IMG/VR virus record: IMGVR_UViG_3300017766_004476
Span: 12,413-76,412 of that record
Strand: one strand, 5' to 3'
DNA from: a virus
Taxonomy: Duplodnaviria > Heunggongvirae > Uroviricota > Caudoviricetes
Length of the DNA: 64,000 bases
Shown: piece after piece, positions 11,165 through 28,039 of the stretch
Layout of the letters: the number at the start of each line of letters is the position of its first letter
Position numbering within the stretch: the first letter of the stretch is position 1
The notes under the pieces: model-generated
Seen by the model: the letters and a program-made list of their open reading frames with translations, nothing else
The model's database searches: none
What the model was told of the DNA's origin: nothing
Position numbers and translations under genes: made by a program

Positions 11165-11193
11165 AGTATGGCTCTAAATTTGTTTCTGTGCAA
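11165..11193 (-). promoter_or_regulatory. island promoter TTGCAC-N17-CATACT
   Basis: Exact hexamers, 6 nt to the ATG. Confidence 0.5.
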
Positions 11194-11312
11194 CTACTTT
11201 TCCGAATTCTTTTCAGCGCCTACGCTCGAGAGAATGCACTCCCTCGCACACCGCAATAGCCCTAAGCGCTGAAAGGAACTCGGAGGGGCTGCCTCCGAGT
11301 AGTGTAAAGGCT

Positions 11313-11591
11313 TTAGGCCGCAGAGGCAACAGCTTTCTTCCGCACGGCGCGCTTCTTCGGAGCCGGAGCCTCGGGCTCAACCGCTTTGGGAGCCGGAGCC
11401 GCCACGAGCTTCGCCTGCTTGGGCTCGCGCTTGGCCCGCTCGTTGAGCCAGCGGAACGTGGGGGTGTGCAGAACGGCCGGATAGGTTCCGTTGCTCTGCG
11501 CCTGAGCGATGAGCTGGTTGACCGCATCGGTCGCGCTGAGCTCTTTGCGCTTGACGCGCTCCTTGTAGCTGTGATGCATTGTTGTCTTCAT
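11313..11591 (-). CDS. island gene 4: small basic protein with Ala/Pro/Lys-rich histone-H1-like tail (AAPAPKAVEPEAPAPKKRAVRKKAVASAA)
   Basis: Start at MKTTMHH. Promoter at 11635-11663 (TTGCAC-N17-TAATAT), 44-nt leader. Confidence 0.5.
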   Translation of the reverse strand: MKTTMHHSYKERVKRKELSATDAVNQLIAQAQSNGTYPAVLHTPTFRWLNERAKREPKQAKLVAAPAPKAVEPEAPAPKKRAVRKKAVASAA

Positions 11592-11634
11592 ATGTTTTTG
11601 TTTCCGACAGTAATCGTTATTGATTACAAAAAAG

Positions 11635-11663
11635 ATATTAGCTGTTTCCCGTGGGCAGTGCAA
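11635..11663 (-). promoter_or_regulatory. island promoter TTGCAC-N17-TAATAT
   Basis: Exact spacing. Confidence 0.45.
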
Positions 11664-11669
11664 CTCTTT

Positions 11670-11960
11670 TTAGAGTTTAATTACAACTACTTCCGCAATA
11701 TAGTGCTTGCCCGTCCCGTGCTGTTTGCCGAATATAGAGAACACCCAGCCGGAGATCTCGTCGTTCATATCCCGCATCCAGGAAACTTCTTCCGCCTGGA
11801 GCTGCTCGTCGTCGGGCAATGCATCGACGTACGCATTGATTGCAGCCATCTCGTGCGAGGGCTCGGGCCTCCGGTCCACCGCATCGTAGTGCTGGCCCCG
11901 GAGGCTGGGCGTATCGAAGTAGTTCTTAATCGTTATCCGGACCGCATATTTCATTTTCAT
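11670..11960 (-). CDS. island gene 3, hypothetical (~96 aa)
   Basis: Start placed at the second ATG so the -10 (CACACT, 11967-11972) lies 6 nt upstream, as in its siblings. Confidence 0.5.
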   Translation of the reverse strand: MKMKYAVRITIKNYFDTPSLRGQHYDAVDRRPEPSHEMAAINAYVDALPDDEQLQAEEVSWMRDMNDEISGWVFSIFGKQHGTGKHYIAEVVVIKL

Positions 11961-11966
11961 ACTCAT

Positions 11967-11995
11967 AGTGTGGCTCCGTTTCTAGTTCTGTGCAA
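11967..11995 (-). promoter_or_regulatory. island promoter TTGCAC-N17-CACACT
   Basis: Exact spacing. Confidence 0.45.
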
Positions 11996-11998
11996 CTA

Positions 11999-12370
11999 TT
12001 AATTGTAGAAATGTTTCCGAATTACAGAGTTGCCTTCGATGGTGAGAACGACTTCAATACAGCACTCGCTGTCTTCCGAATTCTGATACATGACCCAGCA
12101 GCCCGGAGTGTGCCACCCGCTGACCGTATTCTTATCCTTATCGCGCCAGAACACCACCCCCGACAGCTCTCCTTGTGGAATGTCGAGCTTTTCCGCCACC
12201 TCGATACACAAGTTGCCGATATCAGCTTCCATCCCCATCCCATCCTTGCCGAATCCGATAGGCTGAGCATAGACGGGACCACGGCCCAGCCATTGGCTGA
12301 AGCACATCCACAATTTGCTATCGTCGATGTAGTCAATCATCTTCCGGTCAATTGTCGTATCATTTATCAT
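11999..12370 (-). CDS. island gene 2, hypothetical (~123 aa)
   Basis: The -10 CATACT (12377-12382) sits inside the longest ORF, so the start is moved to the Met 6 nt downstream (MINDTT…). Confidence 0.5.
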   Translation of the reverse strand: MINDTTIDRKMIDYIDDSKLWMCFSQWLGRGPVYAQPIGFGKDGMGMEADIGNLCIEVAEKLDIPQGELSGVVFWRDKDKNTVSGWHTPGCWVMYQNSEDSECCIEVVLTIEGNSVIRKHFYN

Positions 12371-12376
12371 ACCCAG

Positions 12377-12405
12377 AGTATGGCTCATCCGCAGGAGCAG
12401 TGCAA
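12377..12405 (-). promoter_or_regulatory. island promoter TTGCAC-N17-CATACT
   Basis: Exact spacing. Confidence 0.5.
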
Positions 12406-12447
12406 CAATTTTCTAAAATATATTTCACGGCCCACCCGAATTTTTGC

Positions 12448-12476
12448 TTGCACATTCCCGAATTTTTCTTTATAAT
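12448..12476 (+). promoter_or_regulatory. plus-strand island promoter P1 (TTGCAC-N17-TATAAT)
   Basis: Consensus-like hexamers. Transcript would start GGGATTGGACCCCTCG. Confidence 0.5.
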
Positions 12477-12527
12477 GGGATTGGACCCCTCGTTACTTTA
12501 CTTTACAAAGAAAGCCCGAATAATGTA

Positions 12528-12556
12528 TTGCACTGCTAAAAAGAAACCGCTATAAT
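12528..12556 (+). promoter_or_regulatory. plus-strand island promoter P2 (TTGCAC-N17-TATAAT)
   Basis: Tandem copy of P1. Transcript would start GGGTCTGGACCTCTCG. Confidence 0.5.
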
Positions 12557-12562
12557 GGGTCT

Positions 12563-12668
12563 GGACCTCTCGTCGCTCGGCCTCCCGCACATAGGGAAAG
12601 GGAGATTATCGCTCCCTCTCGGTGTGAAAAGCCAGCTCCAAATCCTTTTCTTTTCTGCTGGCTTTTTA
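12563..12668 (+). ncRNA. candidate small non-coding RNA (~105 nt from P2, ~185 nt from P1) ending at an intrinsic terminator
   Basis: Promoter, then internal hairpin AGGGAGattatcgcTCCCT, then terminator AAAGCCAGC…GCTGGCTTT + TTTAT (12627-12668). No plausible ORF or SD. Confidence 0.4.
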
Positions 12669-12728
12669 TCAAGGAGAGTGCGACACTCTCGTCGAATGTC
12701 GCACTCTGTGAACTTTCAGACTTGCCTT

Positions 12729-13265
12729 TTAGCCGTTCGCTTCGACCGGCTGCTCAGCGATGTTTTCGACTTGGGGCTGGCCTTCCGGAGCCGGAGTGGG
12801 CTCGGGCGTCGCACCTTCCGGGGCCTGCGCAGCCTTTTTGCTGGCCTTCTTCGCGGCGGGCTTGGTCTTCTTGGCTTCCTTCGCAGCGCGCGCTTCCGCA
12901 GCCTTCGCAGCGCCATCGGACGGGGCGTTCGTCTTCATCTTCCCGTTCAGCTCGAACAGCTTGGCGATGAGCTTTTCCGGATTGGTGCTTGCCATCTTGT
13001 GCATCTCGAACTCCTGGGCCTTCTTGCCCGCGCGCTTGCGCACTTCCTCAATCGTCGCGCCCTTCCGCAGGTCGCTCAGCACGTTCTTGGGAACGTAGAA
13101 TTCGACGATTTCGTCGACCTCAACCTTGCGCCCGAGAATCTCGGAGCGACCCTTGGCCTTGTCGGCGAGGTAGTTGGCGTTGGTATTGCGGGAAGCACCG
13201 GTCAAGCAGCAGACGAGCTGCGGGCACTTCGATTTGGATTCGTTCTTTTTTGCTTTGCGAGCCAT
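12729..13265 (-). CDS. island gene 1: Lys-rich basic protein with AKKxAAK/PEP-rich C-terminal tail (histone-H1/AlgP-like tail)
   Basis: Start at MARKAKK. Promoter at 13335-13363 (TTGCAC-N17-TATCTT) with ~70-nt leader. The antisense 336-aa plus ORF is low-complexity and rejected. Confidence 0.55.
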   Translation of the reverse strand: MARKAKKNESKSKCPQLVCCLTGASRNTNANYLADKAKGRSEILGRKVEVDEIVEFYVPKNVLSDLRKGATIEEVRKRAGKKAQEFEMHKMASTNPEKLIAKLFELNGKMKTNAPSDGAAKAAEARAAKEAKKTKPAAKKASKKAAQAPEGATPEPTPAPEGQPQVENIAEQPVEANG

Positions 13266-13334
13266 ATGTTTGGTTCTTTCTATTTGTTGTTGTTTGTTTG
13301 CTTTACTACTATTCAGCACTTAGCTGATGTTGAT

Positions 13335-13363
13335 AAGATATGTTCTATTTTCGTTCTGTGCAA
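13335..13363 (-). promoter_or_regulatory. island promoter TTGCAC-N17-TATCTT
   Basis: Exact spacing. Confidence 0.4.
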
Positions 13364-13513
13364 CTTTATTTTGAACTTTTTTTCACTTTTGTTTAGCTTA
13401 GTGTTTCTTATCTACATCGTGCGCAAGCACTTTCTTATGCACCAATCTATATGCTTATTAATAACTAGCAAGAAAAATCTGAATAAAAAGTTCACGAAAT
13501 CCCGAATAAAAGC

Positions 13514-13541
13514 TTGCATCCCGGAGAAATATCGCTATAAT
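13514..13541 (+). promoter_or_regulatory. sigma70-like promoter TTGCAT-N16-TATAAT driving a 12-codon ORF and a structured RNA
   Basis: Followed by a perfect SD AAGGAG (13554-13559) and ATG at 13565 (MLRMRSAHDKRS*, 13565-13603). Confidence 0.45.
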
Positions 13542-13708
13542 ATGTTCTCTTTTAAGGAGTTCTAATGTTGAGAATGAGATCCGCTCATGATAAGAGATCT
13601 TAATCGGATCAGATTAGGGATGGGGCTCTGGGTTGCGGAGTGCAGATGTGGATAAGGTCTGAGGCCTCCCGGCTGCGGATCTGGCTCCGGTCCGGATGCA
13701 GCTCGGCA

Positions 13709-13785
13709 TTCAGGGAACGCGCTCTGCAGAGAAATCAGATTTACTTGAATGATTTTTGATTTCTCTGCAGAGCGCGTTCCCTGAA
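13709..13785. repeat. 29-bp perfect inverted repeat (arms 13709-13737 and 13757-13785) with a 19-nt loop
   Basis: TTCAGGGAACGCGCTCTGCAGAGAAATCA / TGATTTCTCTGCAGAGCGCGTTCCCTGAA, exact reverse complements. Confidence 0.9.
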
Positions 13786-14283
13786 AGAACACAGCGCGCC
13801 CGAATAAAAGCTTGATTATCCCTATAATGCGAGAACACTGTGCACTTTAATGATTCTCTGAGGCCTTTGTTCTAAGTCGTAAAGGTATGAATCACTGTGT
13901 TTGTATATGAAATGAAACAAACCTATTTAGAACAAAAGCTACATAGGGATCCGCAGGGGTTAAAAGATATGTCTGACTCGGTAGATATGTAATGAAGAGG
14001 AAGCGCTGAGGAGAGCCTGGCGGGGCAGAGAGTTCTGATACGTGTGTACGCGGTTCTGATAACGTGACGCGGGTATCAGATTGAGACGGGGCTAATAGAT
14101 AGGCCCCGCGAGGTTCTGAATATGAGGGTTCTTTAAACTATCTGAAGGATTACGGATTATAAGAGAGCTACCGGACCGAATAATGCGGATCGGTAGAGGC
14201 TTATAGGGCTCGGAAGGAGTCCGGAATATCTAGAGTTGAGAAAGTTGGAAAAAAATTATCCGGATCCGGGTACCTTTATACGC

Positions 14284-14359
14284 GACCAATTTTCCACTCT
14301 CTTCAGATCACCAATTCTCTTGAGTATTCTCATCCACTCTCTTCAGATCACCAATTCTC
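14284..14359. repeat. 27-bp direct repeat x2 (CCACTCTCTTCAGATCACCAATTCTCT)
   Basis: Two copies separated by ~22 nt, just outside the island's right boundary. Confidence 0.8.
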
Positions 14360-14391
14360 TCAAGCAGTCTCTGCCTCCTTATTTCTCTCCA

Positions 14392-14435
14392 TAAAAAATC
14401 CCATTACTAGATCTATCTCAATTTCTAGTAATGGG
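14392..14435 (-). terminator. rho-independent terminator downstream of 14456..14767
   Basis: CCCATTACTAGA…TCTAGTAATGGG hairpin followed by TTTTTT on the minus strand. Confidence 0.6.
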
Positions 14436-14455
14436 AAGAGTAAAAGACTCGATCT

Positions 14456-14767
14456 TTATTCTATATACTTCCAGAGTATATCGTAAATACGTCTCAGGTC
14501 CTTCTTAACCTCATTAGTTATCACTCCGTTCTCGTCAGGGTACTTCTTGTTTATGTGTTCTATTCCTATTAAGCATTCATGAGCCATCATACTGAAGTTC
14601 ATCCGTGCTTCATCCTTTCTTTGCTCTTCAGGAGTCATCTCAGGATGTACCGGCTTAGGTACTAGTGTTGCCTGATCTTTCATCTCTTTAGGGAAGATGT
14701 CGGGAGGAGTAGGAGAGGTTATCTGATCGTATGCCTCTGCCAAGAGTTGGGTGTCTTTATTCTTCAT
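14456..14767 (-). CDS. small protein, MKNKDTQLLAEAY leader family
   Basis: Leader family member. Its 5' ~40 nt repeats in the next two loci. Confidence 0.5.
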   Translation of the reverse strand: MKNKDTQLLAEAYDQITSPTPPDIFPKEMKDQATLVPKPVHPEMTPEEQRKDEARMNFSMMAHECLIGIEHINKKYPDENGVITNEVKKDLRRIYDILWKYIE

Positions 14768-15006
14768 GGTCGTTCATCTCCATCTACCCGGAGAAGGGTT
14801 AACAGCTTATGTGCTAAGTCCGCCTCTTCAGGAGTGAGACCTTCTTTCACATCTTTAACATATGACAGCTCCCCCATAAGGCTGTCAATTAACATATGTG
14901 ACTCTTCTTTGGGGTTTAATTTTATGAGAGTTGCTTTGGGGCCTTTAGGCTTATTAACTTTACCTTCATATGCCTCTGCCAAGAGTTGGGTGTCTTTATT
15001 CTTCAT
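14764..15006 (-). CDS. small protein, MKNKDTQLLAEAY leader family
   Basis: Tandem paralog. Confidence 0.5.
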   Translation of the reverse strand: MKNKDTQLLAEAYEGKVNKPKGPKATLIKLNPKEESHMLIDSLMGELSYVKDVKEGLTPEEADLAHKLLTLLRVDGDERP

Positions 15007-15015
15007 TATCTTTAT

Positions 15016-15321
15016 TTAGAGATATTTCCAAATATTCTTTTTACCTAAAGGTATAATCTCAATGCCATCACGGCACAGGAGCAGATAGTTTTCATCACCC
15101 TCTCCGGACCCTTCTAAGAACATCGGAAGTGCTACCTCGATCGGTACCGTACCATCTTCCTTACACTCTTCAATTGCATCTTCAACGCTTCCGAAGACCT
15201 GCGTTAGAATCAGTTCTTTTAACGAAGAGAAGCGGGTACGAATTTTCGGTTGATTGTCCCCGAAATAGTCATCCATTCCAATGAGAATGAATTCGCGATC
15301 TGTTGTCTTATTCTCTTTCAT
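15016..15321 (-). CDS. hypothetical protein (101 aa)
   Basis: ORF. An in-frame stop immediately upstream prevents fusion with the leader remnant. Confidence 0.45.
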   Translation of the reverse strand: MKENKTTDREFILIGMDDYFGDNQPKIRTRFSSLKELILTQVFGSVEDAIEECKEDGTVPIEVALPMFLEGSGEGDENYLLLCRDGIEIIPLGKKNIWKYL

Positions 15322-15409
15322 ACTTTATTTGTTGAGGGAGAAGAAATTGAGGACCTTTAACCTTTTGTTCATATGCCTCTGCCAACAATTGAGCGTCTTT
15401 CTTATTCAT
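15308..15409 (-). pseudogene. 33-codon remnant of the LLAEAY leader family (MNKKDAQLLAEAYEQKVKGP…*)
   Basis: Retains the conserved leader and 5' DNA repeat but stops after 33 codons and overlaps the next gene. Confidence 0.3.
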
Positions 15410-15413
15410 ATTT

Positions 15414-15713
15414 TTATTTAGTGCGGTACACTGTGATAATAGTCTTCTCTTCCTTGCCATCATCTCCATCAACCCACATTTCAAGAGATGTATCATCATC
15501 TACTCCCTCGGTGGGAATACCCAGAAGCCATGATATTAGAGTAACTGTGCGTGAGTTGTTAAGAAGGACAGTTAAACCGAAATCATCATTTGCTTCAAAA
15601 ACCCGTCCTGGGATTTCTACTCCATTATCATACCGCAGGGTTACAAAGTCTCCCTTTGCTAAGCTATTCACTTCTGTTATCTTTATGAGCTTAACTTTCT
15701 TATTCATACACAC
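15414..15713 (-). CDS. hypothetical protein (99 aa)
   Basis: ORF. Confidence 0.45.
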   Translation of the reverse strand: MCMNKKVKLIKITEVNSLAKGDFVTLRYDNGVEIPGRVFEANDDFGLTVLLNNSRTVTLISWLLGIPTEGVDDDTSLEMWVDGDDGKEEKTIITVYRTK

Positions 15714-15964
15714 ATAATAAATGAGTCCTTAAGATGACTCAAGGACTCATTTAGAACATTCGTTTATCTTACAAAACTTTGTGTGCTTTAGAGACTGTGG
15801 TAACCTGATAATTAATCCTTCTTGAATTAGTGGCTGTTGAGCCTGGTTCGCTCCCCTTGGAGAGATCTTGAACTGATTAATATCCAGCTTAGTAGCTGGT
15901 GGGGATATTTGAGATTCTTTCTTCATATTCAGCCCCTAACATCCACAGGAACTCTCGCGCTCGG

Positions 15965-16228
15965 TCACCAAGCATTTTGTTGAGTGGGTGCTTCCCAGCA
16001 GCACACTTGGATCAGTGCTTCATTATCAATCCAGGTTGCACCCACCGGGTGACCCTTCACGAGGATAGAGTTTTGCTCTTCCCAGCTCTCGGTAGGAGCA
16101 GCGCTCGTAATTTGTTCTAGGGCAGAGGCAGCTGCCTGTTCGATATTATCAGCAGCAATTTCGATCAGGTCAATAGGTACGTTAGGCCCTGCGCTGATGT
16201 CTGATACTAATGCATAGAATTTTTTCAT
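15965..16228 (-). CDS. hypothetical protein (87 aa)
   Basis: ORF. Confidence 0.4.
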   Translation of the reverse strand: MKKFYALVSDISAGPNVPIDLIEIAADNIEQAAASALEQITSAAPTESWEEQNSILVKGHPVGATWIDNEALIQVCCWEAPTQQNAW

Positions 16229-17132: not shown

Positions 17133-17441
17133 TTATTTAGCTTTTTCTCTTACCATTATTGGATTACCGCACTCATCAGGCATTAGCTTAAATCCTAATG
17201 ATTGGTAGAAGGCAATAAGCTTTTCTGCGCTTATGGCAGACCTCAGCGGAATAGCAAGGAGCTTACATCTTGGAGGAAAGAACTCCTGAGCGAGCTTGCG
17301 TCCCCACCCTATCTTTCGATACGGCTCTGCAATCTCAAAGTAACTAATCCAAAAATAACCATCTGGAGTAGTAAATCCTTTTATTACCCCGAGCCTTCCC
17401 TTGTAGAGGAAGACCATATCTTTAGAGTAGTTCTTAATCAT
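17133..17441 (-). CDS. small GNAT-like protein? (RKIGWGRKL resembles acetyl-CoA motif R-x-x-G-x-G)
   Basis: Weak single motif. Confidence 0.4.
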   Translation of the reverse strand: MIKNYSKDMVFLYKGRLGVIKGFTTPDGYFWISYFEIAEPYRKIGWGRKLAQEFFPPRCKLLAIPLRSAISAEKLIAFYQSLGFKLMPDECGNPIMVREKAK

Positions 17442-17833
17442 TAACAGAATTTATTGCGGATATTTGCCACATACACTTGCCCTGCTTCAGACAATTGATT
17501 GATTCCCCAATACTTGTCCGCATCATGAAGCTTTTGGATGTTTGCCAAGAATGGTACACCCAAAGCTTGAATGTGTTCAGGAAGTGCATTCCACAATTCT
17601 TTTTGCGTCTCATCATTTGTTGTGTCTATGAAAAAATGAAACGCAAGATTCTCAAAAGACGTCTTATACTTATCATCCGGGATATAGCGACCGATTGCGC
17701 ACTTATTACCCGTAGGTGAGCGATAAAAGCATCCAATTTTATCTACAACTGTAGCACGCCGATTTGTATCTGCAGAGTAGAATGCAATAGTTTCATCAAG
17801 AAACTCTTTCCGTTGTTCTTCGATAGTCTTCAT
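17441..17833 (-). CDS. hypothetical protein (130 aa)
   Basis: ORF. Confidence 0.5.
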   Translation of the reverse strand: MKTIEEQRKEFLDETIAFYSADTNRRATVVDKIGCFYRSPTGNKCAIGRYIPDDKYKTSFENLAFHFFIDTTNDETQKELWNALPEHIQALGVPFLANIQKLHDADKYWGINQLSEAGQVYVANIRNKFC

Positions 17834-17840
17834 ATTTTTG

Positions 17841-18308
17841 TTAGAATAAAGCTTTTGAGATAAGAGATTTGAGAGATATCAACTGATCCCGATTAAAAAG
17901 AATTCCTTTACCCTCACCGTAGATGTAGAAATGAGTTTTTTCTACATCTAGAGAGACTCTTGCTCGGTGAATGCTCATTCCATCTATGTCCCCCCTCTCA
18001 TAAGAGAAGTACATATGGAATTCTGCATCAGGACCAAAGGGACTATACACTAAAGTATCAGGAGTGTTTTCCAACCCGTCTGCTACCCAGATTCCAATAT
18101 GGGAATCTACAATAGATATGTAGATTTCAGGATAATCCCAGTACCCAACTGTTTTAAACACTTGAGTGATGGTTTTTAAATCACCGCTACCAAACCGAAA
18201 CCCTGTCTCCATCAATTTTCTTACTACAGTCCGTATCTCTTCACGGTGCTCAGGAGTGCCAGGCGTGTTTCTAAAAGTTATAGTACACAGTCTCTTTTTC
18301 ATACACAC
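17841..18308 (-). CDS. hypothetical protein (155 aa)
   Basis: ORF. Confidence 0.5.
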   Translation of the reverse strand: MCMKKRLCTITFRNTPGTPEHREEIRTVVRKLMETGFRFGSGDLKTITQVFKTVGYWDYPEIYISIVDSHIGIWVADGLENTPDTLVYSPFGPDAEFHMYFSYERGDIDGMSIHRARVSLDVEKTHFYIYGEGKGILFNRDQLISLKSLISKALF

Positions 18309-18351
18309 ATTTTAAATGATTGCTTGTAGTTACTCAAACAATCATTTAGAA

Positions 18352-18822
18352 TTATTTGTTGAGGGAGTAGACATCGTTGTTAACCCGATTTATCCATGCA
18401 TTTCTATTACCTGGAACAGTTTCAGGCCAAAGAGTTACTTCAATTGACCCATCTCCCTCTTCTGCAAAGAGATTAAAGTTGAGCCGAATACTATTGTTGG
18501 TACAGACTGCTACAACTCGTCCAATTCGAGTATGAAGCAGTGACATTTCCGAAAGAATAGTTGTGGTAACAATATCTCCCTCAGCAAGATTTGTACCAAT
18601 GTCCTGTACGGTGAGTCCTGTTAGAGGGTAGGATTGAGGGCAACATTCAGTGACAAGAACCTCTATAAAGTATTCTCCTTCTTGAACCGTAAATTCAGCA
18701 CGAGTTTTAAATTTACGGTCTGTAGGAAAGGATGATTCAAAGGATATGAATCCGGGATTATCTGCATTACCATCTTGCAGATAATCATACCACTTTTTAA
18801 TATATGGTAGAAGCTTCGCCAT
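18352..18822 (-). CDS. hypothetical protein (156 aa)
   Basis: ORF. Confidence 0.5.
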   Translation of the reverse strand: MAKLLPYIKKWYDYLQDGNADNPGFISFESSFPTDRKFKTRAEFTVQEGEYFIEVLVTECCPQSYPLTGLTVQDIGTNLAEGDIVTTTILSEMSLLHTRIGRVVAVCTNNSIRLNFNLFAEEGDGSIEVTLWPETVPGNRNAWINRVNNDVYSLNK

Positions 18823-19204
18823 TACAGAGCCTCGGTCTTGAAACAGCGCGATAGAACTGTCCCATGACCAATCTCGTTAATTGACCGTGTATTGACCTGA
18901 AGGAGGAAAACCGTTGGTTGTGCATTCATAAAGTGTTTTATTTAAATTACACAAAGAGAATAAAACATTTTATATGTTAACGCAACGCTTTTTTTAGCTC
19001 TATAAAGTCTTTATTCCTTTAGGAAAGTATTGAAGATCAGGACAACTTTCATACTGGAAGGCCCATTCAGGACCGAAATTACTAAACATAACTTCAGTAG
19101 GGTCTTCAGCAGTTATAACCAGAATGGTATCCTTATCTAAGGTCGTACCATTAGGAAGGTCATGCCGATGAGATTGACCGAACGTAAAGTATCGGGTAAT
19201 TGTT

Positions 19205-19516
19205 TTAGAAGTCTGCATCTTTTAAGAGCCACTGCTTGGTGGAGTTGAATTTACTAATTGCTAATTGCTTGAGATCATTACCGAACTGGATGGTAGTTGC
19301 CTTGAGCTTACCTCTCCGAGCTAAATTGAATATGTTAATAAGCCAAATACCTAAAATTATAAAGATGTAGAGCGGGCCTAATATCCACCCCAGAATGACA
19401 TTATAATTTCGATGTTTAATACCCCATGAGGATTTACTCACCTCTAAAATTAAAAGGCCAGAAAGAACCCAGAGTATTATAACGACCGGAAAGAAAAATT
19501 TGATAGCATCAACCAT
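19205..19516 (-). CDS. small membrane protein (2-3 TM helices)
   Basis: Hydrophobic segments. Confidence 0.45.
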   Translation of the reverse strand: MVDAIKFFFPVVIILWVLSGLLILEVSKSSWGIKHRNYNVILGWILGPLYIFIILGIWLINIFNLARRGKLKATTIQFGNDLKQLAISKFNSTKQWLLKDADF

Positions 19517-19856
19517 AAATGCCTTGCTCTCCCATAATTTTTAGAATACGATCACGAGATTCCTGATCGTGCTCTGCATCAATACGAGCAGTTGAATGTT
19601 GAAGAATAAATCCTTTGCAATACTTCTTATTCGGTGTCCAGGAAAAGCCCCAAATTTCAAGATGAATGTTGAGATGCTTCTGAATATAGTAAATCAGCTC
19701 CTTTGCAACATCTTCCCACTCTGCTTTGCTCATGGCGCCTGCAGAGACTCTGACAGTATTACCTGTAAAGGTACTGGCAACCTTATAATTATCCATTTGA
19801 TGTACTAGATACTTTCTAGTAACTCTTTCAATTACACTGTCAATATCTTTACGCAT
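19509..19856 (-). CDS. hypothetical protein (115 aa)
   Basis: ORF. Confidence 0.5.
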   Translation of the reverse strand: MRKDIDSVIERVTRKYLVHQMDNYKVASTFTGNTVRVSAGAMSKAEWEDVAKELIYYIQKHLNIHLEIWGFSWTPNKKYCKGFILQHSTARIDAEHDQESRDRILKIMGEQGIYG

Positions 19857-19895
19857 TGATAAGATTATATGAACATTTTAAGTAAACTCAATTAC

Positions 19896-20591
19896 TCATT
19901 TAGTTAGTTCACACACCCACTTACGCCTTAACAAAGGGTACTTTTTAAGCTCAGTCACGAGTTTATATTTATTATTAGGTTGAAGTTGTAAATGCCATAC
20001 TTCACCATTACGCGGATTTGCAAGATATTCGAATTCAGTTACAGTTAGATGAAACCACTTCATAATAATTAAGCGGTTAGTCATCCCATGACCTACGAGT
20101 CCTAAATTCTCAGGAAAGTCATCCTTTTCAAAATCTCGATGAAGCGTCTCGAGTACATCGCTGGCCCGATCATAGACATCTGCACATGATTCACCTCCAT
20201 CAAATCGATAATAAAAGTGGCCATAATCATCGCGTTGGGATTGGATATCTTCATCTCGTGCATATCCTCCTATCTTTCCATTCCATTCCTGTTCCCGCAT
20301 CCGCGGCTCTTCTCTAATCCATTTCTTAGGAGTATAAACCAGAGTCTTGAGAATCTCTTGTGCTGTCTGAATAGTACGGAAGTAAGGAGAGTAATAGATT
20401 GCTGTGGTGAGATTGGTGGGTGTGTCACTATTCGCTAATATTTTAAAGATTTCTTTACCAGCTTGGAAAGCTTGTTGTTTACCGTAAGGAGTAAGGTTAA
20501 CTGCATAATCAGGCTTCTCCTGATATATGGAGTGGTCTACATTGCCCTCAGATTGACCATGACGGATTAAAAAGATATTACGGGGTTTCAT
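19896..20591 (-). CDS. histidine phosphatase superfamily (phosphoglycerate-mutase-like) protein
   Basis: N-terminal LIRHGQSEGN (RHG catalytic motif). Confidence 0.75.
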   Translation of the reverse strand: MKPRNIFLIRHGQSEGNVDHSIYQEKPDYAVNLTPYGKQQAFQAGKEIFKILANSDTPTNLTTAIYYSPYFRTIQTAQEILKTLVYTPKKWIREEPRMREQEWNGKIGGYARDEDIQSQRDDYGHFYYRFDGGESCADVYDRASDVLETLHRDFEKDDFPENLGLVGHGMTNRLIIMKWFHLTVTEFEYLANPRNGEVWHLQLQPNNKYKLVTELKKYPLLRRKWVCELTK

Positions 20592-20799
20592 ACTTCCTTC
20601 TCAAGATAGGTTGCCATTTAACACTTACTATAGAGACTTCACCTACATCATTAGTCTTATAGGTTGCGATTGCTTCATAACCTTTGAGAGATTGCTTAGT
20701 TAAAGCTCTTTCAGCAGTGATGGTCCCACATATCAACCCTGTAAAGAATATTAAAATTGCGCCTACTACTAAAGTAGCATTTTCAGCTTGTTTATTCAT
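20578..20799 (-). CDS. small protein with N-terminal TM helix
   Basis: ORF, hydrophobic N-terminus. Confidence 0.4.
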   Translation of the reverse strand: MNKQAENATLVVGAILIFFTGLICGTITAERALTKQSLKGYEAIATYKTNDVGEVSIVSVKWQPILRRKYETP

Positions 20800-21042
20800 A
20801 TAAAGGGATTCTTAATGGGTTGGAGTACTTTAATCTTCTTCCAATCAATCTCAGGAAGGAGGACGCGATCACAAAAATCAGGACCCTTTAATTCATAAAC
20901 TGAAATAAATGGTTCATGGTTATGAGCACAGAAAACGTCCCATATTTCACAATCACCGTAGGTTATCTGTGTATCCTTCTGACGCCAGAGCTTTCTGAGC
21001 AGTTTAATCTTCTTAATGTTCGGATCAATGTTCTTAGGCATA

Positions 21043-21432
21043 TTAACCTCTCAATTTGGCATATGCCGCGTTTAATTTTTCGAGAATATCGATCGGAAAC
21101 TCTGCACATCCCACCTTGATCGACTCCTTAGTGACCGATGCAGTGTATTTGCCGTTAAGCACTACAGAGATGCTCTGCAACGCATACTTATCAGTATCAG
21201 AAAAGAATTCTTCGAACGTAATAGTTGTATGTGAAGAGAAGCTGTGAGGATTGCCTCCCCAATGTTTCAAGTAAGGTTTAATCACTAACCAATGATACTC
21301 ACTGTAATGTACGAGATAATTTGCGGCATTAAAACCGTTTGATGATTTGAAGCCGCGGCTTTCCAAGAAGTTTACGATTGCCTGTACCCCCGCAGCACTC
21401 TTACAATCGATTTGATAAATTGTTTCTTTCAT
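21043..21432 (-). CDS. hypothetical protein (129 aa)
   Basis: ORF. Confidence 0.5.
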   Translation of the reverse strand: MKETIYQIDCKSAAGVQAIVNFLESRGFKSSNGFNAANYLVHYSEYHWLVIKPYLKHWGGNPHSFSSHTTITFEEFFSDTDKYALQSISVVLNGKYTASVTKESIKVGCAEFPIDILEKLNAAYAKLRG

Positions 21433-21482
21433 ATAATGTATAATAGTGAAATGATAAAGTAATTCAAAGTCTTTCTTAGAAA

Positions 21483-21746
21483 TTACTCTTTAAAGTTAGG
21501 AGACTCTCCACAGAAGGCCATGAGTACCTCCAATAGAAGTCTATCTGATGCAGTCGGCTTTTCTATACCTGCTTCGATTATTCTTATCCGTTGCTTTAAT
21601 TCTATCATTACTTCTTTTAATTCAGCGCGGGGGTATTCGATAAAGCCGTATGGAACATTAAGCCTTAGAATAGCATTATCAGGATGTCCACTAGTAAAAT
21701 AATGAGAGGGTTCTGTCAAAACTCTTTCCATGTCATCTATTTTCAT
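21483..21746 (-). CDS. hypothetical protein (~87 aa)
   Basis: Start at an internal Met so the CTAAATGAT motif lies upstream. Confidence 0.45.
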   Translation of the reverse strand: MKIDDMERVLTEPSHYFTSGHPDNAILRLNVPYGFIEYPRAELKEVMIELKQRIRIIEAGIEKPTASDRLLLEVLMAFCGESPNFKE

Positions 21747-21913
21747 AATATTATTACACCTTATAGGTATAATCATTTAGAACCTATGAGGCCTTTGTTC
21801 TAAATGAGTTTTATTTCATTCATGATGTGTGATAGTGTTTTTAAATTGTGCTACTTAGATCAAATTCTCTATTTTTCACTATTAGACGTGTAGAGTGTAC
21901 CTAAAAAAGAAAG

Positions 21914-22027
21914 TGCCGGTGGAGGGATTCGAACTTAGCTTGTACTTCGCTACCGCTGCTCGTGCACGAGCCAGCGCCTCTCTACCTAGTTTATCAAACT
22001 AGCGCTCTGCCATTAAGCTACACCGGA
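21914..22027 (-). tRNA. tRNA-Ile(GAU)-like gene interrupted by a ~42-nt palindromic insertion inside the T-stem
   Basis: Acceptor, D-arm (GCTT/AATGGCA/GAGC), anticodon arm (CTAGT-TTGATAA-ACTAG) and T-loop TTCGAAT are canonical. An extra 21935-21976 segment (contains GCTCGTGCACGAGC) separates the T-stem 5' half from the loop. Confidence 0.5.
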
Positions 22028-22039
22028 AATTGTTACTTA

Positions 22040-22309
22040 TTACTTAATCATTGTCGCCAATGCAGCAGTAACACTGGCAATCAGGAACCCAACTAAATAG
22101 GTAATACCGCCCGCAATGCCCATGCAGAAGATGCGCACGATGCCCCATGCTACTTCCGTAGAGGAAACGGGGGTCTGGTTTGCTGCATCGATAATCTGGA
22201 CAATACCCTTCCATAGACATTCATAGAAGGAGACATAAATACCTCCACAGATGGTTGCTACAACTAAGAGGGCTGCGACAATGTAGAGGAGAATTTTGAT
22301 AATAATCAT
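22040..22309 (-). CDS. small membrane protein (89 aa)
   Basis: Hydrophobic. Confidence 0.45.
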   Translation of the reverse strand: MIIIKILLYIVAALLVVATICGGIYVSFYECLWKGIVQIIDAANQTPVSSTEVAWGIVRIFCMGIAGGITYLVGFLIASVTAALATMIK

Positions 22310-22360
22310 ATTTTGATAATAATGGTACGTTTTAGTTATTCAAATACAAATTTAGTAAAA

Positions 22361-22441
22361 TGGTGGGCCGTGCCGGCAATCGTCCCGGCTATCTTTCGAT
22401 TATGAGTCGAGTGCTTATACAAAGATTTAAGCTTCCGGCCC
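22361..22441 (-). ncRNA. tRNA-like element with CAU anticodon loop and encoded ACCA end, but non-canonical D- and T-loops
   Basis: GGGCCGG/ACGGCCC acceptor (6/7 bp), CTCATAA anticodon loop (U33, CAU, A37), 3' ACCA. Lacks G18G19 and T54Ψ55. Might be only terminator hairpins. Confidence 0.25.
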
Positions 22442-22446
22442 GGAAA

Positions 22447-22947
22447 TTATTCGTCTTTACCTTTTAAGGGAAACTCTCCATCATTAGCTATGATATGCTG
22501 CATAATGAGCTTCAATCGTTCGTTAGCAGGTCCTGAGAACATACCGATATATGAGCGTGAAATCACTGCATTTTGATGCCAACTATCTGATCGGCATTCA
22601 AATGCTGATTCCATATTGTCAAGCATCTCAGTAGGAAATGCATCGAGGAGTGATTTGGGGTAACGATAACCACACTTTTCAATATCATAAAACTTACCTA
22701 CATCCCAAAATGAAGCCTCAAACTCATTAAACCGCTTAACCCATGCCACAAAGATTGACCCCTTTGCACAAACCTGACATGTATTCTTTTTAAGTTCTTC
22801 TCGATTTACTTTATGAGACTCTTCGACTTCTTTCATTTTAAATGAAAGAAACGTTGCTGGTAAAGCAACAATTTCCTGTGCTTCTAATTGTGCAAGTACA
22901 TCCTGTGCAATTAGAATTCTGAGCTGTTTTGCTTCTAGAGGTGTCAT
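22447..22947 (-). CDS. hypothetical protein (166 aa)
   Basis: ORF. Confidence 0.5.
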   Translation of the reverse strand: MTPLEAKQLRILIAQDVLAQLEAQEIVALPATFLSFKMKEVEESHKVNREELKKNTCQVCAKGSIFVAWVKRFNEFEASFWDVGKFYDIEKCGYRYPKSLLDAFPTEMLDNMESAFECRSDSWHQNAVISRSYIGMFSGPANERLKLIMQHIIANDGEFPLKGKDE

Positions 22948-22959
22948 ATTTGTAAATTT

Positions 22960-23304
22960 TTAAATCTGACGCAACCACTTAAACTCGAGAGTTATCGGGA
23001 GTTGTGGTAACAACGCTCTCCGAGTTCCGCCATTTCGTAATCCGAACGGATGCGTTACTTCTGAGCTCGTAATTTTTTTACAGAGCTTAGAGTTATTTAC
23101 CGCATACTGTTGATTATCGAGATTGACTACATCCCAACCGACACCTACACGGATGTTCTCATCTTGTACATATTCCGCTACTGCTTGAGCAAGTACACAC
23201 TGCTGACAAAATTCGATATCTTTTGAAGCATCCTGAGCTGCATCTTCTGCCATCTTGAGATGCGTTTCAGTTACTACTACGATAAATGATTCTCTTTTTC
23301 TCAT
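22960..23304 (-). CDS. hypothetical protein (114 aa)
   Basis: ORF. CTAAATAAAC 43 nt upstream. Confidence 0.45.
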   Translation of the reverse strand: MRKRESFIVVVTETHLKMAEDAAQDASKDIEFCQQCVLAQAVAEYVQDENIRVGVGWDVVNLDNQQYAVNNSKLCKKITSSEVTHPFGLRNGGTRRALLPQLPITLEFKWLRQI

Positions 23305-23352
23305 ATAACTGTGTGTAATATAAATCTTTTTATAGAATGCTCAATGGTTTAT

Positions 23353-23805
23353 TTAGAGTATCTCTTCGATAAGCCAGGCGATTTCTTCAAACGTCGCACC
23401 ATTATCATTTAAATCAGCGAGATTATTATATCCGTGAAGACCTTTTGGGCTGTTAAACAAGATATCTACGTTCAAAAGTCCAGAGCATTCAAGAATATTG
23501 CTCACATTCGGAATTCCTGCAGGGAGATAATTTGCAGATTCCGTCATATCTGGTGAGGAGAATTTGTAATATTCAAGGTCTTTTGTATGACACTCAACCA
23601 ACTTCTTGTTCAGATTCAGAACATTACACAACACTCCAAGACAGCAGCACTCATTATCTACTCTTTCGAGCTTCCCCTTCCCTTGCTGATATTCACCTGA
23701 GCGCAAAGCTTCCAACCACGTTTGCTTCAGCTCTGGGTCTAAACGTTTGCGGTTTACATCTAAGGTACTATCTTCATATGAAACCCGTTCAAATTCTTTT
23801 CTCAT
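23353..23805 (-). CDS. hypothetical protein (150 aa)
   Basis: ORF. Confidence 0.5.
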   Translation of the reverse strand: MRKEFERVSYEDSTLDVNRKRLDPELKQTWLEALRSGEYQQGKGKLERVDNECCCLGVLCNVLNLNKKLVECHTKDLEYYKFSSPDMTESANYLPAGIPNVSNILECSGLLNVDILFNSPKGLHGYNNLADLNDNGATFEEIAWLIEEIL

Positions 23806-24135
23806 ATTGATATAATAACAGATTCTCTTAAGGTAAACAATTACTTATTTTGATTTCTTTATCTTTAATGATAGAGGGGAAATAGACTATAACCTGCAAT
23901 CCCATACTATCCTGAGATGATTTGCGCAATCCCTTTAATGCACAGAGCTCGATAACTTCTGTTGCATCGTTACAAACAATACCGGGACATTGACGACCGA
24001 ACATCCCCCGACCGCTGTAATCTCTATAAACCGTTCCATTAACTTCCTGAGCGACATCTTCGAGGATTTTTAATGCTTGTGCGTATGTTTTCATTTATCG
24101 TTAATGTGTGTAATATAAATGCTTTTTAAGACATT

Positions 24136-24705
24136 TCAATTACTTTTTTTGATTAGCAAATTCTTGCGCCGATTAAACTCACTCAAGAAAGATTCAAAGG
24201 AATATTGAGTTTCTTCTGCAAGCTTCTCAATAGATTTTGCAAAACACATCTTCTGTTGGGTTGTAGTTTTACCTCTGTGCTCTTCAATCATATAACCAAA
24301 TCCATCTAAAAACCAAGCAGCATCTGCAAAATCTTCAACACCTTCATCAATACCAAATTTATGATGCAAATTTAATTGAAACGCCCATACACGGCGCTCT
24401 CTTTCAATATGATACGGCTTTTGAAATTCAATAAACGTTTGCCCTAATAGATGTTGAGGACGTGGATACTTTAATCCCCATCCATCCTTAACCATTCTAC
24501 TCTCATCAATTTCTACAAAGTGGGAAATTTCGTGAAGTACATTAGATAGTGTCGCTTCGGGACCAGCCCAGGGCCCAATCTTTATTTTCTTTTTGAAAAC
24601 AGTCTGACCCTGTAACTTTGGGTCATATTCAATTGGAGCAAGGAAGTTCGTTATCCATTGAGCTTCTTTATCTGTTACTTTATTTTCATAAATCATAATA
24701 TCCAA
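24136..24705 (-). CDS. hypothetical protein with HExxH (HEISH) metallopeptidase-like motif
   Basis: Single motif. Confidence 0.45.
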   Translation of the reverse strand: MDIMIYENKVTDKEAQWITNFLAPIEYDPKLQGQTVFKKKIKIGPWAGPEATLSNVLHEISHFVEIDESRMVKDGWGLKYPRPQHLLGQTFIEFQKPYHIERERRVWAFQLNLHHKFGIDEGVEDFADAAWFLDGFGYMIEEHRGKTTTQQKMCFAKSIEKLAEETQYSFESFLSEFNRRKNLLIKKSN

Positions 24706-25183
24706 AAAAAATTAGAAATTGACATCAACCGCTAAGTATTCGACACACGCAGAGAATTACCTACTGGTGCTGCTCATCAATTTCTAAAAAATGGTACGGT
24801 CTGCGAGGACTTACACCTGCTACTATCAAGAGCTACCAATCGAGATTATCTAGAAATCTCAACAATTCACTCAAGCTGTTCTATTACTATTAAACTTAGA
24901 CCGAAAAGTGGTGAGTGAGGCAGGATTTCTACCTGCATTGCGTGCCTCTGGTTATTCACCGATACGCTACTCACCCACAAAGTTACAATCCAAATGCATT
25001 CTTAGACGCCCAGTCGTAAGCTTCATCTTTAGACAGCCCTAAAGATTCACCATACTCTGTCCAGCTCACAACTCGGTTAAAAATATTTTCAAGTGCATTC
25101 ATATCTCAACTTTCAATGTGATTAATATATGTGAAATCTATGGATGTTAAAGTGTTTATTTAGGTTAATTCGAACCCGTACAG

Positions 25184-26029
25184 TTGTTTTATAGTTTTAT
25201 AATAAATAATTGTATGAATAAAGATGAGGTACAAGAGCAAATTAATAGATTTAAGACCACAAATACTGGTAAATTTAAAAGCCTTCTATTTGATAACAAT
25301 TTGAAGCTAGTAATGTGTGAAGAGTGTAAAGTGACAGATACATATAATTCTAAACCAATAACTCTACAACTTCATCATATTGACGGAAATAATCAAAACA
25401 ATCATATTGACAATTTTCAGATATTATGCCCTAATTGTCATTCACAAACTAAAACATTTAGAGCCCCTAAAAGGGTAACAGACGATCAAATTTTAGCAGC
25501 TGCAAATAATTCTAAAACAATATCAGAAATTATTAAAAAGCTTGGAAAATATGCAAGTGGGGGTATTTATAAACGTATTGAAAAGGTTATTTTAGAGCAT
25601 AAATTGCCTATTACTAAGTATGATTATACGTCTAATAGAGCTATAGGATTTAAAAAGCCTCGAGGTAGAAAGCCTACAGGTTTGACACTAAAGACACATA
25701 TATGTAAGCATTGTAATTTAGAATTTAAACATACACACAAACGAACATATTGCTCATCAAAGTGCACCCATGATGCAGCATGTAAGTATAATATTGATGT
25801 TCAATCTGCAATTCCACTCATTAAAAAATTTGGATGGAGTCAAGCCGCAGTAAAATTAAATATCAATACAAAATGTCCTGATGTTACTCTCCGCTTAGCT
25901 GTTAAGCGCCATATAAAGTATATCGACCCAACACTTGACCTTCATGAATTATCTAAATTCAGTCATCATTCTAGATACATATATGACAAAGAAACTCGAC
26001 AGAGAATAGATAAATCTCTGTCGAGTTAA
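25184..26029 (+). mobile_element. free-standing HNH homing endonuclease (Mob-like), adjacent to a tRNA gene
   Basis: CEEC…HHIDGN…NxQILCPNCH HNH core. Sole plus-strand gene in a minus-strand block. Probable start at 25214. Confidence 0.75.
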
Positions 26030-26031: not shown

Positions 26032-26121
26032 TGGTACCACAGACTGGACTTGAACCAGCACACTGGGTTAAACCAGCTAGGGATTTTAAATCCCTTGCGT
26101 CTGCCATTTCGCCACTGTGGC
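26032..26121 (-). tRNA. tRNA-Leu(UAA), type II with long variable arm, CCA encoded
   Basis: Acceptor GCCACAG/CTGTGGT, anticodon loop TTTAAAA, variable hairpin CTGG…CCAG, T-arm GCTGG-TTCAAGT-CCAGT, 3' ACCA. Confidence 0.75.
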
Positions 26122-26544
26122 AACTAAAGCCTACCACTATAGCTTTCGCTACCCTATCTCGCTATGCACAGAATCACCTTTCGGGTATCTGCTACACTCT
26201 GAGAATTAGTTTGTGGTCTGGACTATGCCTTTACCTTTTTATTGTGAACGCTCAGCACATCAAGCTGAATATGTCCAACCGTAGTAATGTTTTATCGATA
26301 TTTATTTATCGATAGCAACGAGCGTCATTCTCGTAACAACTCCGAAGAGGGTAGGTTTAACCTCTCGTTCACAATAAGTTAAGGTAGGTGATTATAGTCT
26401 CTACACGTCTCGAATTATGAGGCTATAGAATTTATCGCAATTAAGCGGCTAGACGGGGAGCCTAGCAATCGTGGTAGGTCGCTAGGCGCCTATTCTTCCA
26501 CAATCCTTTCTTCTATTATTTCTTTCACGTTTGCCTTCGATTTC

Positions 26545-26770
26545 GCTCGGCGTTGGGTTGTTGGTAGGACTTGAACCTACAATATGTGCGTCTATTCAGA
26601 GTTATATCACACAACGGCAGTCTTCGCTATATCTCTTGTAGCTACAAACTCCCAGATTTGCCATTCTCTACAACGAGCCGTTCACCGAATTTACACCTTA
26701 CTAACTACCTCTTTCGAGATAGCCGACCCTTATGAGTCTGCTGCGTCTGCCATTTCGCCACTAGCCCATT
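26545..26770 (-). other. tRNA-derived fragments: orphan T-arm/acceptor 3' half (26545-26580) and a 20-nt duplicate of the tRNA-Leu 5' region (26741-26765)
   Basis: GTAGGTTCAAGTCCTAC T-arm without a matching 5' acceptor. GTGGCGAAATGGCAGACGCA is identical to tRNA-Leu positions 7-26. Confidence 0.4.
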
Positions 26771-27589
26771 TTAAGAATGAGATGCGCTGTGCATCCAATT
26801 AAATTAGTAAATCAGCTAACGAGTCGCTATGTCGAATCAAATTTACTAATCTAATTACATCATTGCCATTCTTAAATTAAACAAATTGTTAGATAGGATC
26901 ATCCTATATGAGTTGCTCTATTCAGCATTGCTGCTGACTTCACACAGCGCATGAAGTATTACATCTTATGGTCGAGTAGACTCTACCAGCTATTAGGTAT
27001 TTGCGTCTTCCGTTCCGCCACTCAACAACTTGTTTAAATTTTCAAAGAACAATATTAAAAGTATCAACTGGGACGAGTTTCGAGCATATGTAATACCTAG
27101 CTAGGGTTGACAATATCCTCACAATATAGGTGTGGGATATCGATGCGTTATGCAATCATACAATACGTTACTTCCCAGATACGCGCTCTGGCTCACTGAG
27201 GCACACAGTCAAATGCGCAGTAACTATATTACTTAACTCTATTTTATCCGCTTCTTCGAACTCAATGTTCGCGGACCCAGTCAAATTGTTAAAGATCAAT
27301 ATTAAAAAAGATACTAAGTTGCTTTAGTATTTGATATATCTAATTACGTGGCGAACAGTTAAACTAAGCGAAACACGCCACCCGAAACGATAGAAACTAC
27401 TCAGTTTTTCGATGAATAAATTAGTCAACAATTTATTCAATATTAGATATTAAAGATCAAAACCGTAAATTTACTGAAAGAATCCCATCATTAATACGTC
27501 TCTCACTCTTGGTGATGGCCTCGTTCCATCTCTCAGTGTTATTATATTAATTTCTTTCTCTAGAAGTTAAAGTGTTTATTCAGCTTTTA

Positions 27590-28039
27590 TTAATGCTTCA
27601 GGAGCTCTTCCTCAACTAATGCTTTGATTTCCTTAGGGAAGCAGCGCGGAAATTGCTTGACTTCTTTATGGAGCACTCGGGTGGTACTACCGGAGATAGT
27701 CGTTCCTCTGAATACCACAATGACCTTACCATACGGATGATTGTAGCCTTGATCAGGGATACCTTCTTTACGCATTGTGGTGCAGTATGCTCTCATACAA
27801 CCCGGAAGATTCTCAATGTGAGGGTTCATCTGCCGAGCCTTTCCTCGATGCCAGAGTGTGATGAAGTTGACATGAGGTCCTTTTTCATGTTCAACCAACC
27901 ACTCCTTACATTCAATCATCCCACCTTTGATAAGATAAGGCTCTCCATTCATCGGATAGATGAACATTAAAGTCCAAGGATTACCCTCCTTATATGAGCG
28001 CGTCTTGTCCCAATCGTTTTGAACAAATTTTGTCTTCAT
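27590..28039 (-). CDS. hypothetical protein (~150 aa)
   Basis: Internal-Met start (MKTKFVQ). Confidence 0.45.
   Translation of the reverse strand: MKTKFVQNDWDKTRSYKEGNPWTLMFIYPMNGEPYLIKGGMIECKEWLVEHEKGPHVNFITLWHRGKARQMNPHIENLPGCMRAYCTTMRKEGIPDQGYNHPYGKVIVVFRGTTISGSTTRVLHKEVKQFPRCFPKEIKALVEEELLKH

Follow-up and report, generated by a model that had tools for sequence, protein, structure and literature searches.

A 42-nt hairpin-bearing insert splits the T stem of a tRNA-Ile(GAU) gene in a large bacteriophage

We report that a tRNA-Ile(GAU) gene in a 64,000-nt stretch of viral DNA (hereafter, the window) is interrupted between tRNA positions 52 and 53, inside the T stem, by a 42-nt insert that fits no known class of intron, ribozyme or mobile element and carries no signals of any known excision pathway. 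We tentatively favour, at somewhat less than an even chance, the explanation that a young, lineage-specific DNA insertion has crippled a genuine tRNA-Ile(GAU) of a novel large phage.

The gene is detected by the Rfam tRNA model RF00005, which matches 21914-22027 on the minus strand over its full length (positions 1-71 of 71) and scores 36.2 bits, above the gathering score of 29 (E=6e-4 for the whole window and 3.4e-6 in a local search), and whose alignment opens a 51-nt local insertion in the T arm, between GAGG and CCUC. ARAGORN leaves the gene with its insert uncalled, both at the default setting and in the intron modes which the original prediction had proposed as a check; at a lowered threshold these modes merely force a wrong intron into the anticodon loop. 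Once exactly 21935-21976 is deleted in silico, the same program calls a 73-nt tRNA-Ile(GAT) with a 5-bp T stem (GAGGG/CCCUC) and the T loop UUCGAAU. The practical lesson for such surveys is that a gene missed outright by ARAGORN was detected by the Rfam tRNA model. Read on the minus strand from 22027 to 21914, the gene runs UCCGGUG-UA-GCUU-AAUGGCA-GAGC-G-CUAGU-UUGAUAA-ACUAG-GUAGA-GAGG and, after the 42 nt of the insert, G-UUCGAAU-CCCUC-CACCGGC-A. The coordinates, strand, GAU anticodon, insert length and 14-bp palindrome of the original prediction are borne out by the Rfam match, by ARAGORN after the deletion and by sequence search. The elements of the locus are as follows:

22040..22309, minus strand: upstream 89-aa ORF, a predicted membrane protein (weak PHROG membrane-protein match)
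21977..22027, minus strand: 5' part of tRNA-Ile(GAU), comprising the acceptor 5' strand, D arm, anticodon arm (loop UUGAUAA), variable loop GUAGA and T-stem positions 49-52 (GAGG); from the Rfam alignment and the ARAGORN cloverleaf without the insert
21935..21976, minus strand: 42-nt insertion CGCTGGCTCGTGCACGAGCAGCGGTAGCGAAGTACAAGCTAA between tRNA positions 52 and 53; its deletion restores a canonical tRNA
21914..21934, minus strand: 3' part of tRNA-Ile, comprising G53, the T loop UUCGAAU, the T-stem 3' strand CCCUC, the acceptor 3' strand CACCGGC and discriminator A73; from the Rfam alignment and ARAGORN
21903..21913, minus strand: T-rich tract CTTTCTTTTTT directly 3' of the discriminator base; read from the sequence

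Both parts of the gene look like those of a real isoleucine tRNA. The tertiary positions are kept (U8, A14, G18G19, U54U55C56, A58, C61), as are the isoleucine identity elements (G34A35U36, A37, A38, A73 and U12-A23). The claim that all elements are canonical holds for the cloverleaf, which is clean when the insert is taken out, and needs qualifying for pair 1:72, a U-C mismatch, for positions 15/48, which would be A/A, and for the CCA end, which is not encoded. The 89-aa ORF lies on the same strand and stops 12 nt before the tRNA, and the two are likely to be co-transcribed. The T-rich tract at 21903..21913, which a consensus terminator scan did not call, is a possible transcript end or processing region.

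The insert can be placed exactly between positions 52 and 53, since the bases on either side differ and the junction cannot slide: the insert begins with C, unlike G53, and ends with A, unlike G52. Four of the five bases of the T-stem 5' strand thus lie upstream of the insert and G53 downstream, and the junctions read AGAGG/CGCTG and GCTAA/GTTCG. The 42-nt segment occurs only once in the window, and its GC content (60%, counted by hand) compares with ~39% in the genome. Its parts and junctions are listed below:

21954..21976, minus strand: hairpin 1, CGCUG-G-GCUCG UGCA CGAGC-AGCG, from folding
21958..21971, no strand assigned: perfect 14-bp palindrome GCTCGTGCACGAGC, the core of hairpin 1, containing GTGCAC
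21935..21953, minus strand: hairpin 2, G-UAGC GAAGUACAA GCUA-A, from folding
Two insert junctions: GAGAGGCGCTGGCTCG and CAAGCTAAGTTCGAATCC
Joined exons: GUAGAGAGG followed directly by GUUCGAAUCC; insert-free allele GGTAGAGAGGGTTCGAATCC; insert-free junction GTAGAGAGGGTTCGAATCCCTCC

In isolation the insert folds at -16.3 kcal/mol into two hairpins, one strong and one weak. Hairpin 1 is GC-rich, with 9 bp and one bulged G (-12.0 kcal/mol), and is adjoined by GTAG tetranucleotides; hairpin 2 has only 4 bp and a 9-nt loop (-3.0 kcal/mol). The minimum free energy structure predicted for the 114-nt RNA contains the stems of the acceptor and anticodon arms and the GAGG/CCUC pairs, with the two hairpins between them, so that insert and cloverleaf do not compete for pairing; the energy of the fold as a whole is ordinary (z-score -0.7). 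The perfect 14-bp palindrome, to which attention had originally been drawn, is present as described and is not unusual: six such palindromes occur in the window compared with a mean of 5.7 in shuffled sequence, so on its own it is evidence of nothing. What is distinctive is the longer, 23-nt GC-rich hairpin and its place inside a tRNA. In the DNA, the sequence of hairpin 1 forms a near-perfect 23-bp palindrome centred on the self-complementary GTGCAC. An RNA hairpin needs no self-complementary loop, and from this symmetry we infer that hairpin 1 had a DNA-level origin or is a symmetric DNA site.

An error of assembly, raised at the outset as a way in which the insert might disappear, is at odds with a separately built Logan contig of 8,160 bp from SRR10520205, which is 100% identical over 17303-25462, insert included, although it may share reads with the JGI contig and is not an independent sample. 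The window is itself part of that JGI source contig of 112,741 bp, ~48 kb of which lies outside it. Since a second assembly agrees with the first base for base over 8,160 bp, and since nothing apart from the oddity of the structure speaks for a sequencing or assembly artefact, we regard that explanation as extremely unlikely. The insert is presumably also unlike the common sequencing adapters.

To our knowledge, no intervening sequences other than group I introns are established for the tRNA genes of bacteria and phages. The insert is not a group I intron: it is only 42 nt long, lacks a catalytic core (P3-P9), has G at the 5' junction in place of the U of the required U-G pair, and lies at 52/53 and not in the anticodon loop. 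The original prediction was right on this last point, the known sites of group I introns in bacterial tRNAs being 33/34, 34/35, 35/36 and 36/37 (PMC13011429). Protein-spliced tRNA introns are not known at all in bacteria and their phages (PMC13011429). An intron of that kind was rejected for the insert, as no strict or relaxed bulge-helix-bulge (BHB) motif can form at the junctions: when all bulge registers were enumerated in both geometries (3-nt bulges, 4-bp helix) none gave four pairs, and the best central helix, strict or relaxed hBHBh', has three of four pairs between poor flanking helices. Among the 111 ORFs of at least 70 aa in the window, none matches the Pfam families of tRNA-intron (EndA-type) endonucleases. 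An Rfam scan of 21800-22150 at E<=1 returned nothing besides the tRNA, neither Intron_gpI nor any ribozyme, and small self-cleaving ribozymes (hammerhead, twister, pistol, hatchet, HDV-like) were dropped for want of a match at that threshold. Nor does the insert form a long variable arm of the class II kind, at 44-48 and followed by an intact 5-bp T stem: the GCUAA directly before the T loop cannot pair with CCCUC, for which the only complementary strand is the GAGG upstream of the insert.

The proposal that a mobile hairpin had turned the gene into a pseudogene is upheld as far as the interruption goes; the word mobile finds no support in copies, target-site duplications or terminal inverted repeats. 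Transposition of a miniature element of this sort (REP, MITE or IS200/IS605-derived) into the tRNA gene would agree with the small size, the palindrome and the 60% GC of the insert in a ~39% GC genome, and with the GTAG tetranucleotides beside the hairpin. However, the search for other copies, also suggested at the time, turned up nothing meaningful: no second copy of palindrome or insert exists in the window with 2-3 mismatches allowed, and in the larger collections, where only exact matches were scanned for, which limits sensitivity, a 19-mer of the insert has no match in IMG/VR and a 21-mer has one in 596 Gb of reference genomes (185,579 genomes). That single match, inside a TatD-like ORF, comes from a GC-rich Erythrobacter and is due to chance. 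Further to that, no target-site duplication or terminal inverted repeat is found: the junctions show no direct repeat, and CGCTGGC at one end of the insert is not the inverted counterpart of AAGCTAA at the other. We consider the mobile-hairpin explanation largely refuted, and very improbable.

A source within the neighbouring DNA was likewise not found. A motif, GGTAGCGAA..AGCTA, common to the insert and 26145-26160 was first read as homology and was dropped after the insert had been aligned locally with the remainder of the window: the score of 23 was equalled or exceeded by 95 of 200 shuffles, whose mean was 22.6. Origin by local duplication or by a nearby template switch was rejected too, as the insert shares no word longer than 6 nt with the sequence within 300 nt on either side.

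The source of this DNA is a large bacteriophage, as indicated by a sigma-70 r2/r4 protein and a ligase resembling T4 Rnl1, and the sigma-70-type factor points to a bacterial host. The window has ~39% GC and dense small ORFs, mostly on the minus strand, and the regions tested have no DNA-level relatives in phage GenBank. It also encodes an HNH endonuclease and an SPFH protein, together with two metallophosphoesterases, an HD protein and a histidine phosphatase (His_Phos_1, 19896-20591) which, with two ligases, look like an RNA-repair toolkit. The ligases and a set of NAD+ salvage genes are located as follows:

59107-60231, minus strand: T4 Rnl1-like RNA ligase (best PDB match 2c5u, E=2e-8)
37534-38547, minus strand: PF09414 RNA ligase, with an N-terminal stretch that is HNH-like by eye and no close solved structure
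47117-48166, 51944-53365 and 53794-54741, minus strand: NAD+ salvage set (PRPP synthetase, NAMPT and NadR-like NMNAT-Nudix)

The salvage set and the NADAR and ART-PolyVal (ADP-ribosyltransferase) domains found elsewhere in the window hint at counter-defence against NAD+ depletion. A separate observation concerns ~8000-16000, where ORFs are on the plus strand and GC is 45-46% compared with about 38-39%; this may be foreign or differently organised DNA. It contains at 12555-13565 a 336-aa low-complexity ORF rich in Arg, Leu and Gly that may be a wrong-strand reading.

Close relatives of the locus did not emerge from the databases. An anticodon-arm 21-mer has no match in IMG/VR and the flanking ORFs have no confirmed relatives there; the 166-aa ORF beside the tRNA has no match in phage GenBank (tblastn) and no homologue but itself among 5.8 billion proteins. 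In blastn against phage GenBank, positions 20000-24000 gave no match and the 114-nt gene just weak matches to generic 5' parts of tRNAs, with no copy of the insert. More distant relatives could be reached through the His_Phos_1 phosphatase, 1.3 kb downstream of the tRNA, which has hundreds of homologues with 50-55% identity on contigs of 100-300 kb. Around such homologues we collected 106 loci (~1.1 Mb in total), in which neither ARAGORN nor Rfam nor a purpose-built scan for split T stems revealed a tRNA interrupted in this way; the relatives that share the phosphatase-linked tRNA neighbourhood have normal tRNAs.

Two of these loci, L004 and L005, have a tRNA cluster directly upstream of the phosphatase, as in the window, in the order Gly-Gly-Ile(UAU)-Met-Leu(UAA). 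Their tRNA-Ile(UAU) shares the anticodon stem CUAGU/ACUAG with the tRNA-Ile(GAU) of the window, but its variable region carries an added hairpin (19 nt in L004) and its T stem is uninterrupted. A pattern scan of IMG/VR for this family returned nine matches with seven distinct sequences, one of them on the contig of L004. The members of the tRNA-Ile(UAU) family with a long variable arm are:

L004, 9050-9142
L005, about 8544-8634
L109-L117

The stem of the variable arm covaries in this family (GCACC/GGUGC, GCAGU/UCUGC, GCGGU/UCCGC) beneath a conserved AGAUU loop, the D loop is without the usual GG, and CCA is encoded; some members, such as that of L005, are missed by ARAGORN. In this family, as in class II tRNAs and in the gene of the window, an additional hairpin separates the anticodon arm from the T loop, yet the family differs from the gene in the window in the position of the arm at 44-48, the intact T stem, the D arms and the UAU anticodon. 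Since the D arms differ, the two are not orthologous. These genes do show that the phage group tolerates extra arms in isoleucine tRNAs, at a site other than 52/53. In a further locus (L108) the interval from a DUF8296 gene to the phosphatase is without any tRNA, which places the tRNA-Ile(GAU) of the window in variable accessory DNA.

Several other RNA-related genes were seen in the distant relatives. A distantly related 197-kb contig (L029) has a GOLLD RNA (196 bits) in the midst of its tRNA genes, at 17525-17979 on the plus strand. tRNAs with a CUA anticodon (ARAGORN 'Pyl') occur at 18901-18977 of the same locus and at 1094-1168 of L024; these are probably amber suppressors, which would suggest stop-codon recoding in part of the phage group. 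The relative with the closest phosphatase (L107) carries at 18465-19349, plus strand, a Thg1-like gene (PF04446, 3'-5' tRNA nucleotidyltransferase) adjoining Dam-type methyltransferases and a Gad2 protein, and this gene is a further tRNA-repair function in the phage group.

About 4 kb upstream of the interrupted gene lies a second region with tRNA-like remains. The ~1.5 kb at 26122-27590 (minus strand), directly upstream of an intact tRNA-Leu(UAA) at 26035-26121 (minus strand), have no ORF of at least 80 aa on any strand and none above 43 aa on the minus strand. They contain two segments that look like tRNA 5' halves, near 27030 and near 26770, with D arms resembling that of tRNA-Leu(UAA), the D arm near 26770 being identical to tRNA-Leu at 19 of 19 bases. 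There is also a hairpin like a T arm plus acceptor at 26556-26615 (a weak tRNA match, 17 bits) and a weak group I intron match at 26199-26746 (19.1 bits, E=0.05); the intron match begins right within the anticodon loop of the 5' half near 26770 and has recognisable P3, P4, P7, P8 and J8/7, a U33-G pair in P1 and GNRA-capped hairpins. No convincing 3' partners, complete 3' exon or cloverleaves were found for the 5' halves and no full split genes could be assembled; nhmmer of 26122-27600 against all the relative loci gave nothing. We provisionally interpret the region as tRNA relics with an intron relic, while it may alternatively be an undescribed structured RNA. The relics suggest that decayed tRNA genes are tolerated here, and with them another damaged tRNA gene in the same genome is unsurprising. 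A free-standing HNH homing-endonuclease gene at 25184-26029 (plus strand) abuts the 3' end of tRNA-Leu(UAA) from the opposite strand. Homing endonucleases abutting tRNA genes are typical mobile DNA of phage tRNA clusters.

We suggest that a recent accident at the DNA level may have put 42 bp between positions 52 and 53 of a working gene. The near-perfect 23-bp palindrome with its GTGCAC centre would be compatible with fold-back or template-switch synthesis or with a symmetric protein-binding site, and such symmetry would fit an RNA selected for its structure less well. In the RNA, folding predicts that the two insert hairpins bulge from the 5' strand of the T stem while the rest of the cloverleaf still forms, and structural knowledge of tRNA and EF-Tu implies that this bulge would cripple decoding. 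Positions 51-54, and with them the bulge at 52/53, are on what we take to be the T-stem face contacted by EF-Tu, beside the elbow used by the ribosome and RNase P; with a bulge on that face and next to the elbow, the unprocessed RNA is unlikely to decode. The gene would be a young relic, at best giving a tRNA-like RNA, within a tRNA region that is accessory and undergoes rearrangement. Support for this comes from the exon defects (U1-C72, A15/A48), the one-off nature of the insert and the lack of excision signals; as the exons are otherwise intact, the relic would have to be very young. Against it, the insert is modular and does not compete with the cloverleaf, as expected of a tolerated or processed element, and two RNA ligases with several phosphoesterases could in principle reseal a nick at 52/53.

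These same observations are the starting point of an alternative in which a phage or host endonuclease removes the 42-nt T-stem bulge as a new, BHB-independent intervening sequence. Excision would leave G52 and G53 side by side on the continuous C61-C65 strand, a nick on a template strand and hence an ideal substrate for a nick-sealing RNA ligase, for which the Rnl1-like enzyme at 59107-60231 and the PF09414 protein at 37534-38547 are candidates; in a variant without religation, a two-piece tRNA would be held together by its acceptor and T stems, in the manner of rRNA intervening sequences. It would account for the intact exons, the independent folding of the insert and the restoration of a canonical tRNA by removal of exactly 42 nt, in a window which encodes two RNA ligases, two metallophosphoesterases, an HD protein and a histidine phosphatase. 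Typical RNase III substrates are longer than 9 bp, though, and hairpin 1 has just 9; no excision signal of a known kind is present, the window offers no candidate endonuclease, the flanking ORFs being orphans, and the insert is a single occurrence without conservation. Large phages lacking such an insert moreover commonly encode RNA ligases of this sort, for the repair of tRNAs, and protein-spliced tRNA introns are not known from bacteria or phages (PMC13011429). We judge BHB-independent excision as a whole to be unlikely, and excision followed by nick sealing by the phage RNA ligases to be doubtful to much the same degree. The novel intervening sequence of the original prediction has gained no BHB, no ribozyme match and no splicing endonuclease among the 111 ORFs; a new kind of T-stem intervening sequence, with protein-dependent tRNA splicing in a bacterial virus, is in our view quite improbable. 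It may also be that the insert is retained and that the expanded tRNA works in translation, or serves as a tRNA-like RNA (decoy, scaffold or protein-binding site). The predicted minimum free energy fold, a cloverleaf with two extra hairpins, would be consistent with this, as would the conserved tRNA-Ile(UAU) of the relatives with its variable-region hairpin (19 nt in L004) and the same CUAGU/ACUAG stem. However, in the relatives the arm is at 44-48 and the T stem is whole, whereas here the T stem is split four pairs further on; the D arms differ and the tRNA-Ile(UAU) genes are not orthologues, positions 51-54 face EF-Tu and the elbow (from structural knowledge), and no other example occurs in ~1.1 Mb of related loci. 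Retention, in our assessment, would be a fairly improbable outcome.

The insert may be compared with several known systems. Archaeal and eukaryal BHB introns at non-canonical sites, including T-arm cases in Thermoproteales, Cyanidioschyzon and nucleomorphs, are like it in being tens of nt long and outside the anticodon loop, in leaving the cloverleaf intact and in restoring a canonical tRNA upon exact removal; unlike them, it has no BHB at its junctions and belongs to a bacteriophage that encodes a sigma-70-type factor, and no EndA-type endonuclease was found in the window. The group I introns of bacterial and phage tRNAs have a possible representative in the same phage, the weak match 4 kb upstream, and differ from the insert, which is 42 nt long, lies in a T stem and has neither a catalytic core nor a U at the 5' junction. 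The intervening sequences of 23S rRNA, excised by RNase III without religation, are likewise hairpin extras in a helix of a stable RNA of a bacterial system, and excision here would similarly yield a fragmented but base-paired product; they are found in rRNA helices 25 and 45 as long RNase III duplexes, in contrast to a 9-bp stem in a tRNA, and we know of no tRNA counterpart. Relics in phage tRNA clusters share with the gene a disabling lesion, an accessory setting and nearby tRNA fragments with a homing-endonuclease gene. It differs from typical relics in its essentially undamaged exons and in having one clean structured insertion where they show scattered decay.

If the insert is no more than a lesion, the gene is of little importance, a young tRNA relic of the ordinary kind, although the phage is unusual. 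Processing of the RNA, if it takes place, would make the insert the first intervening sequence in a tRNA of a bacterial system that is neither group I nor group II and the first to lie in a T stem, and the RNA ligases of phages would gain a role beyond the repair of damage done by anticodon nucleases.
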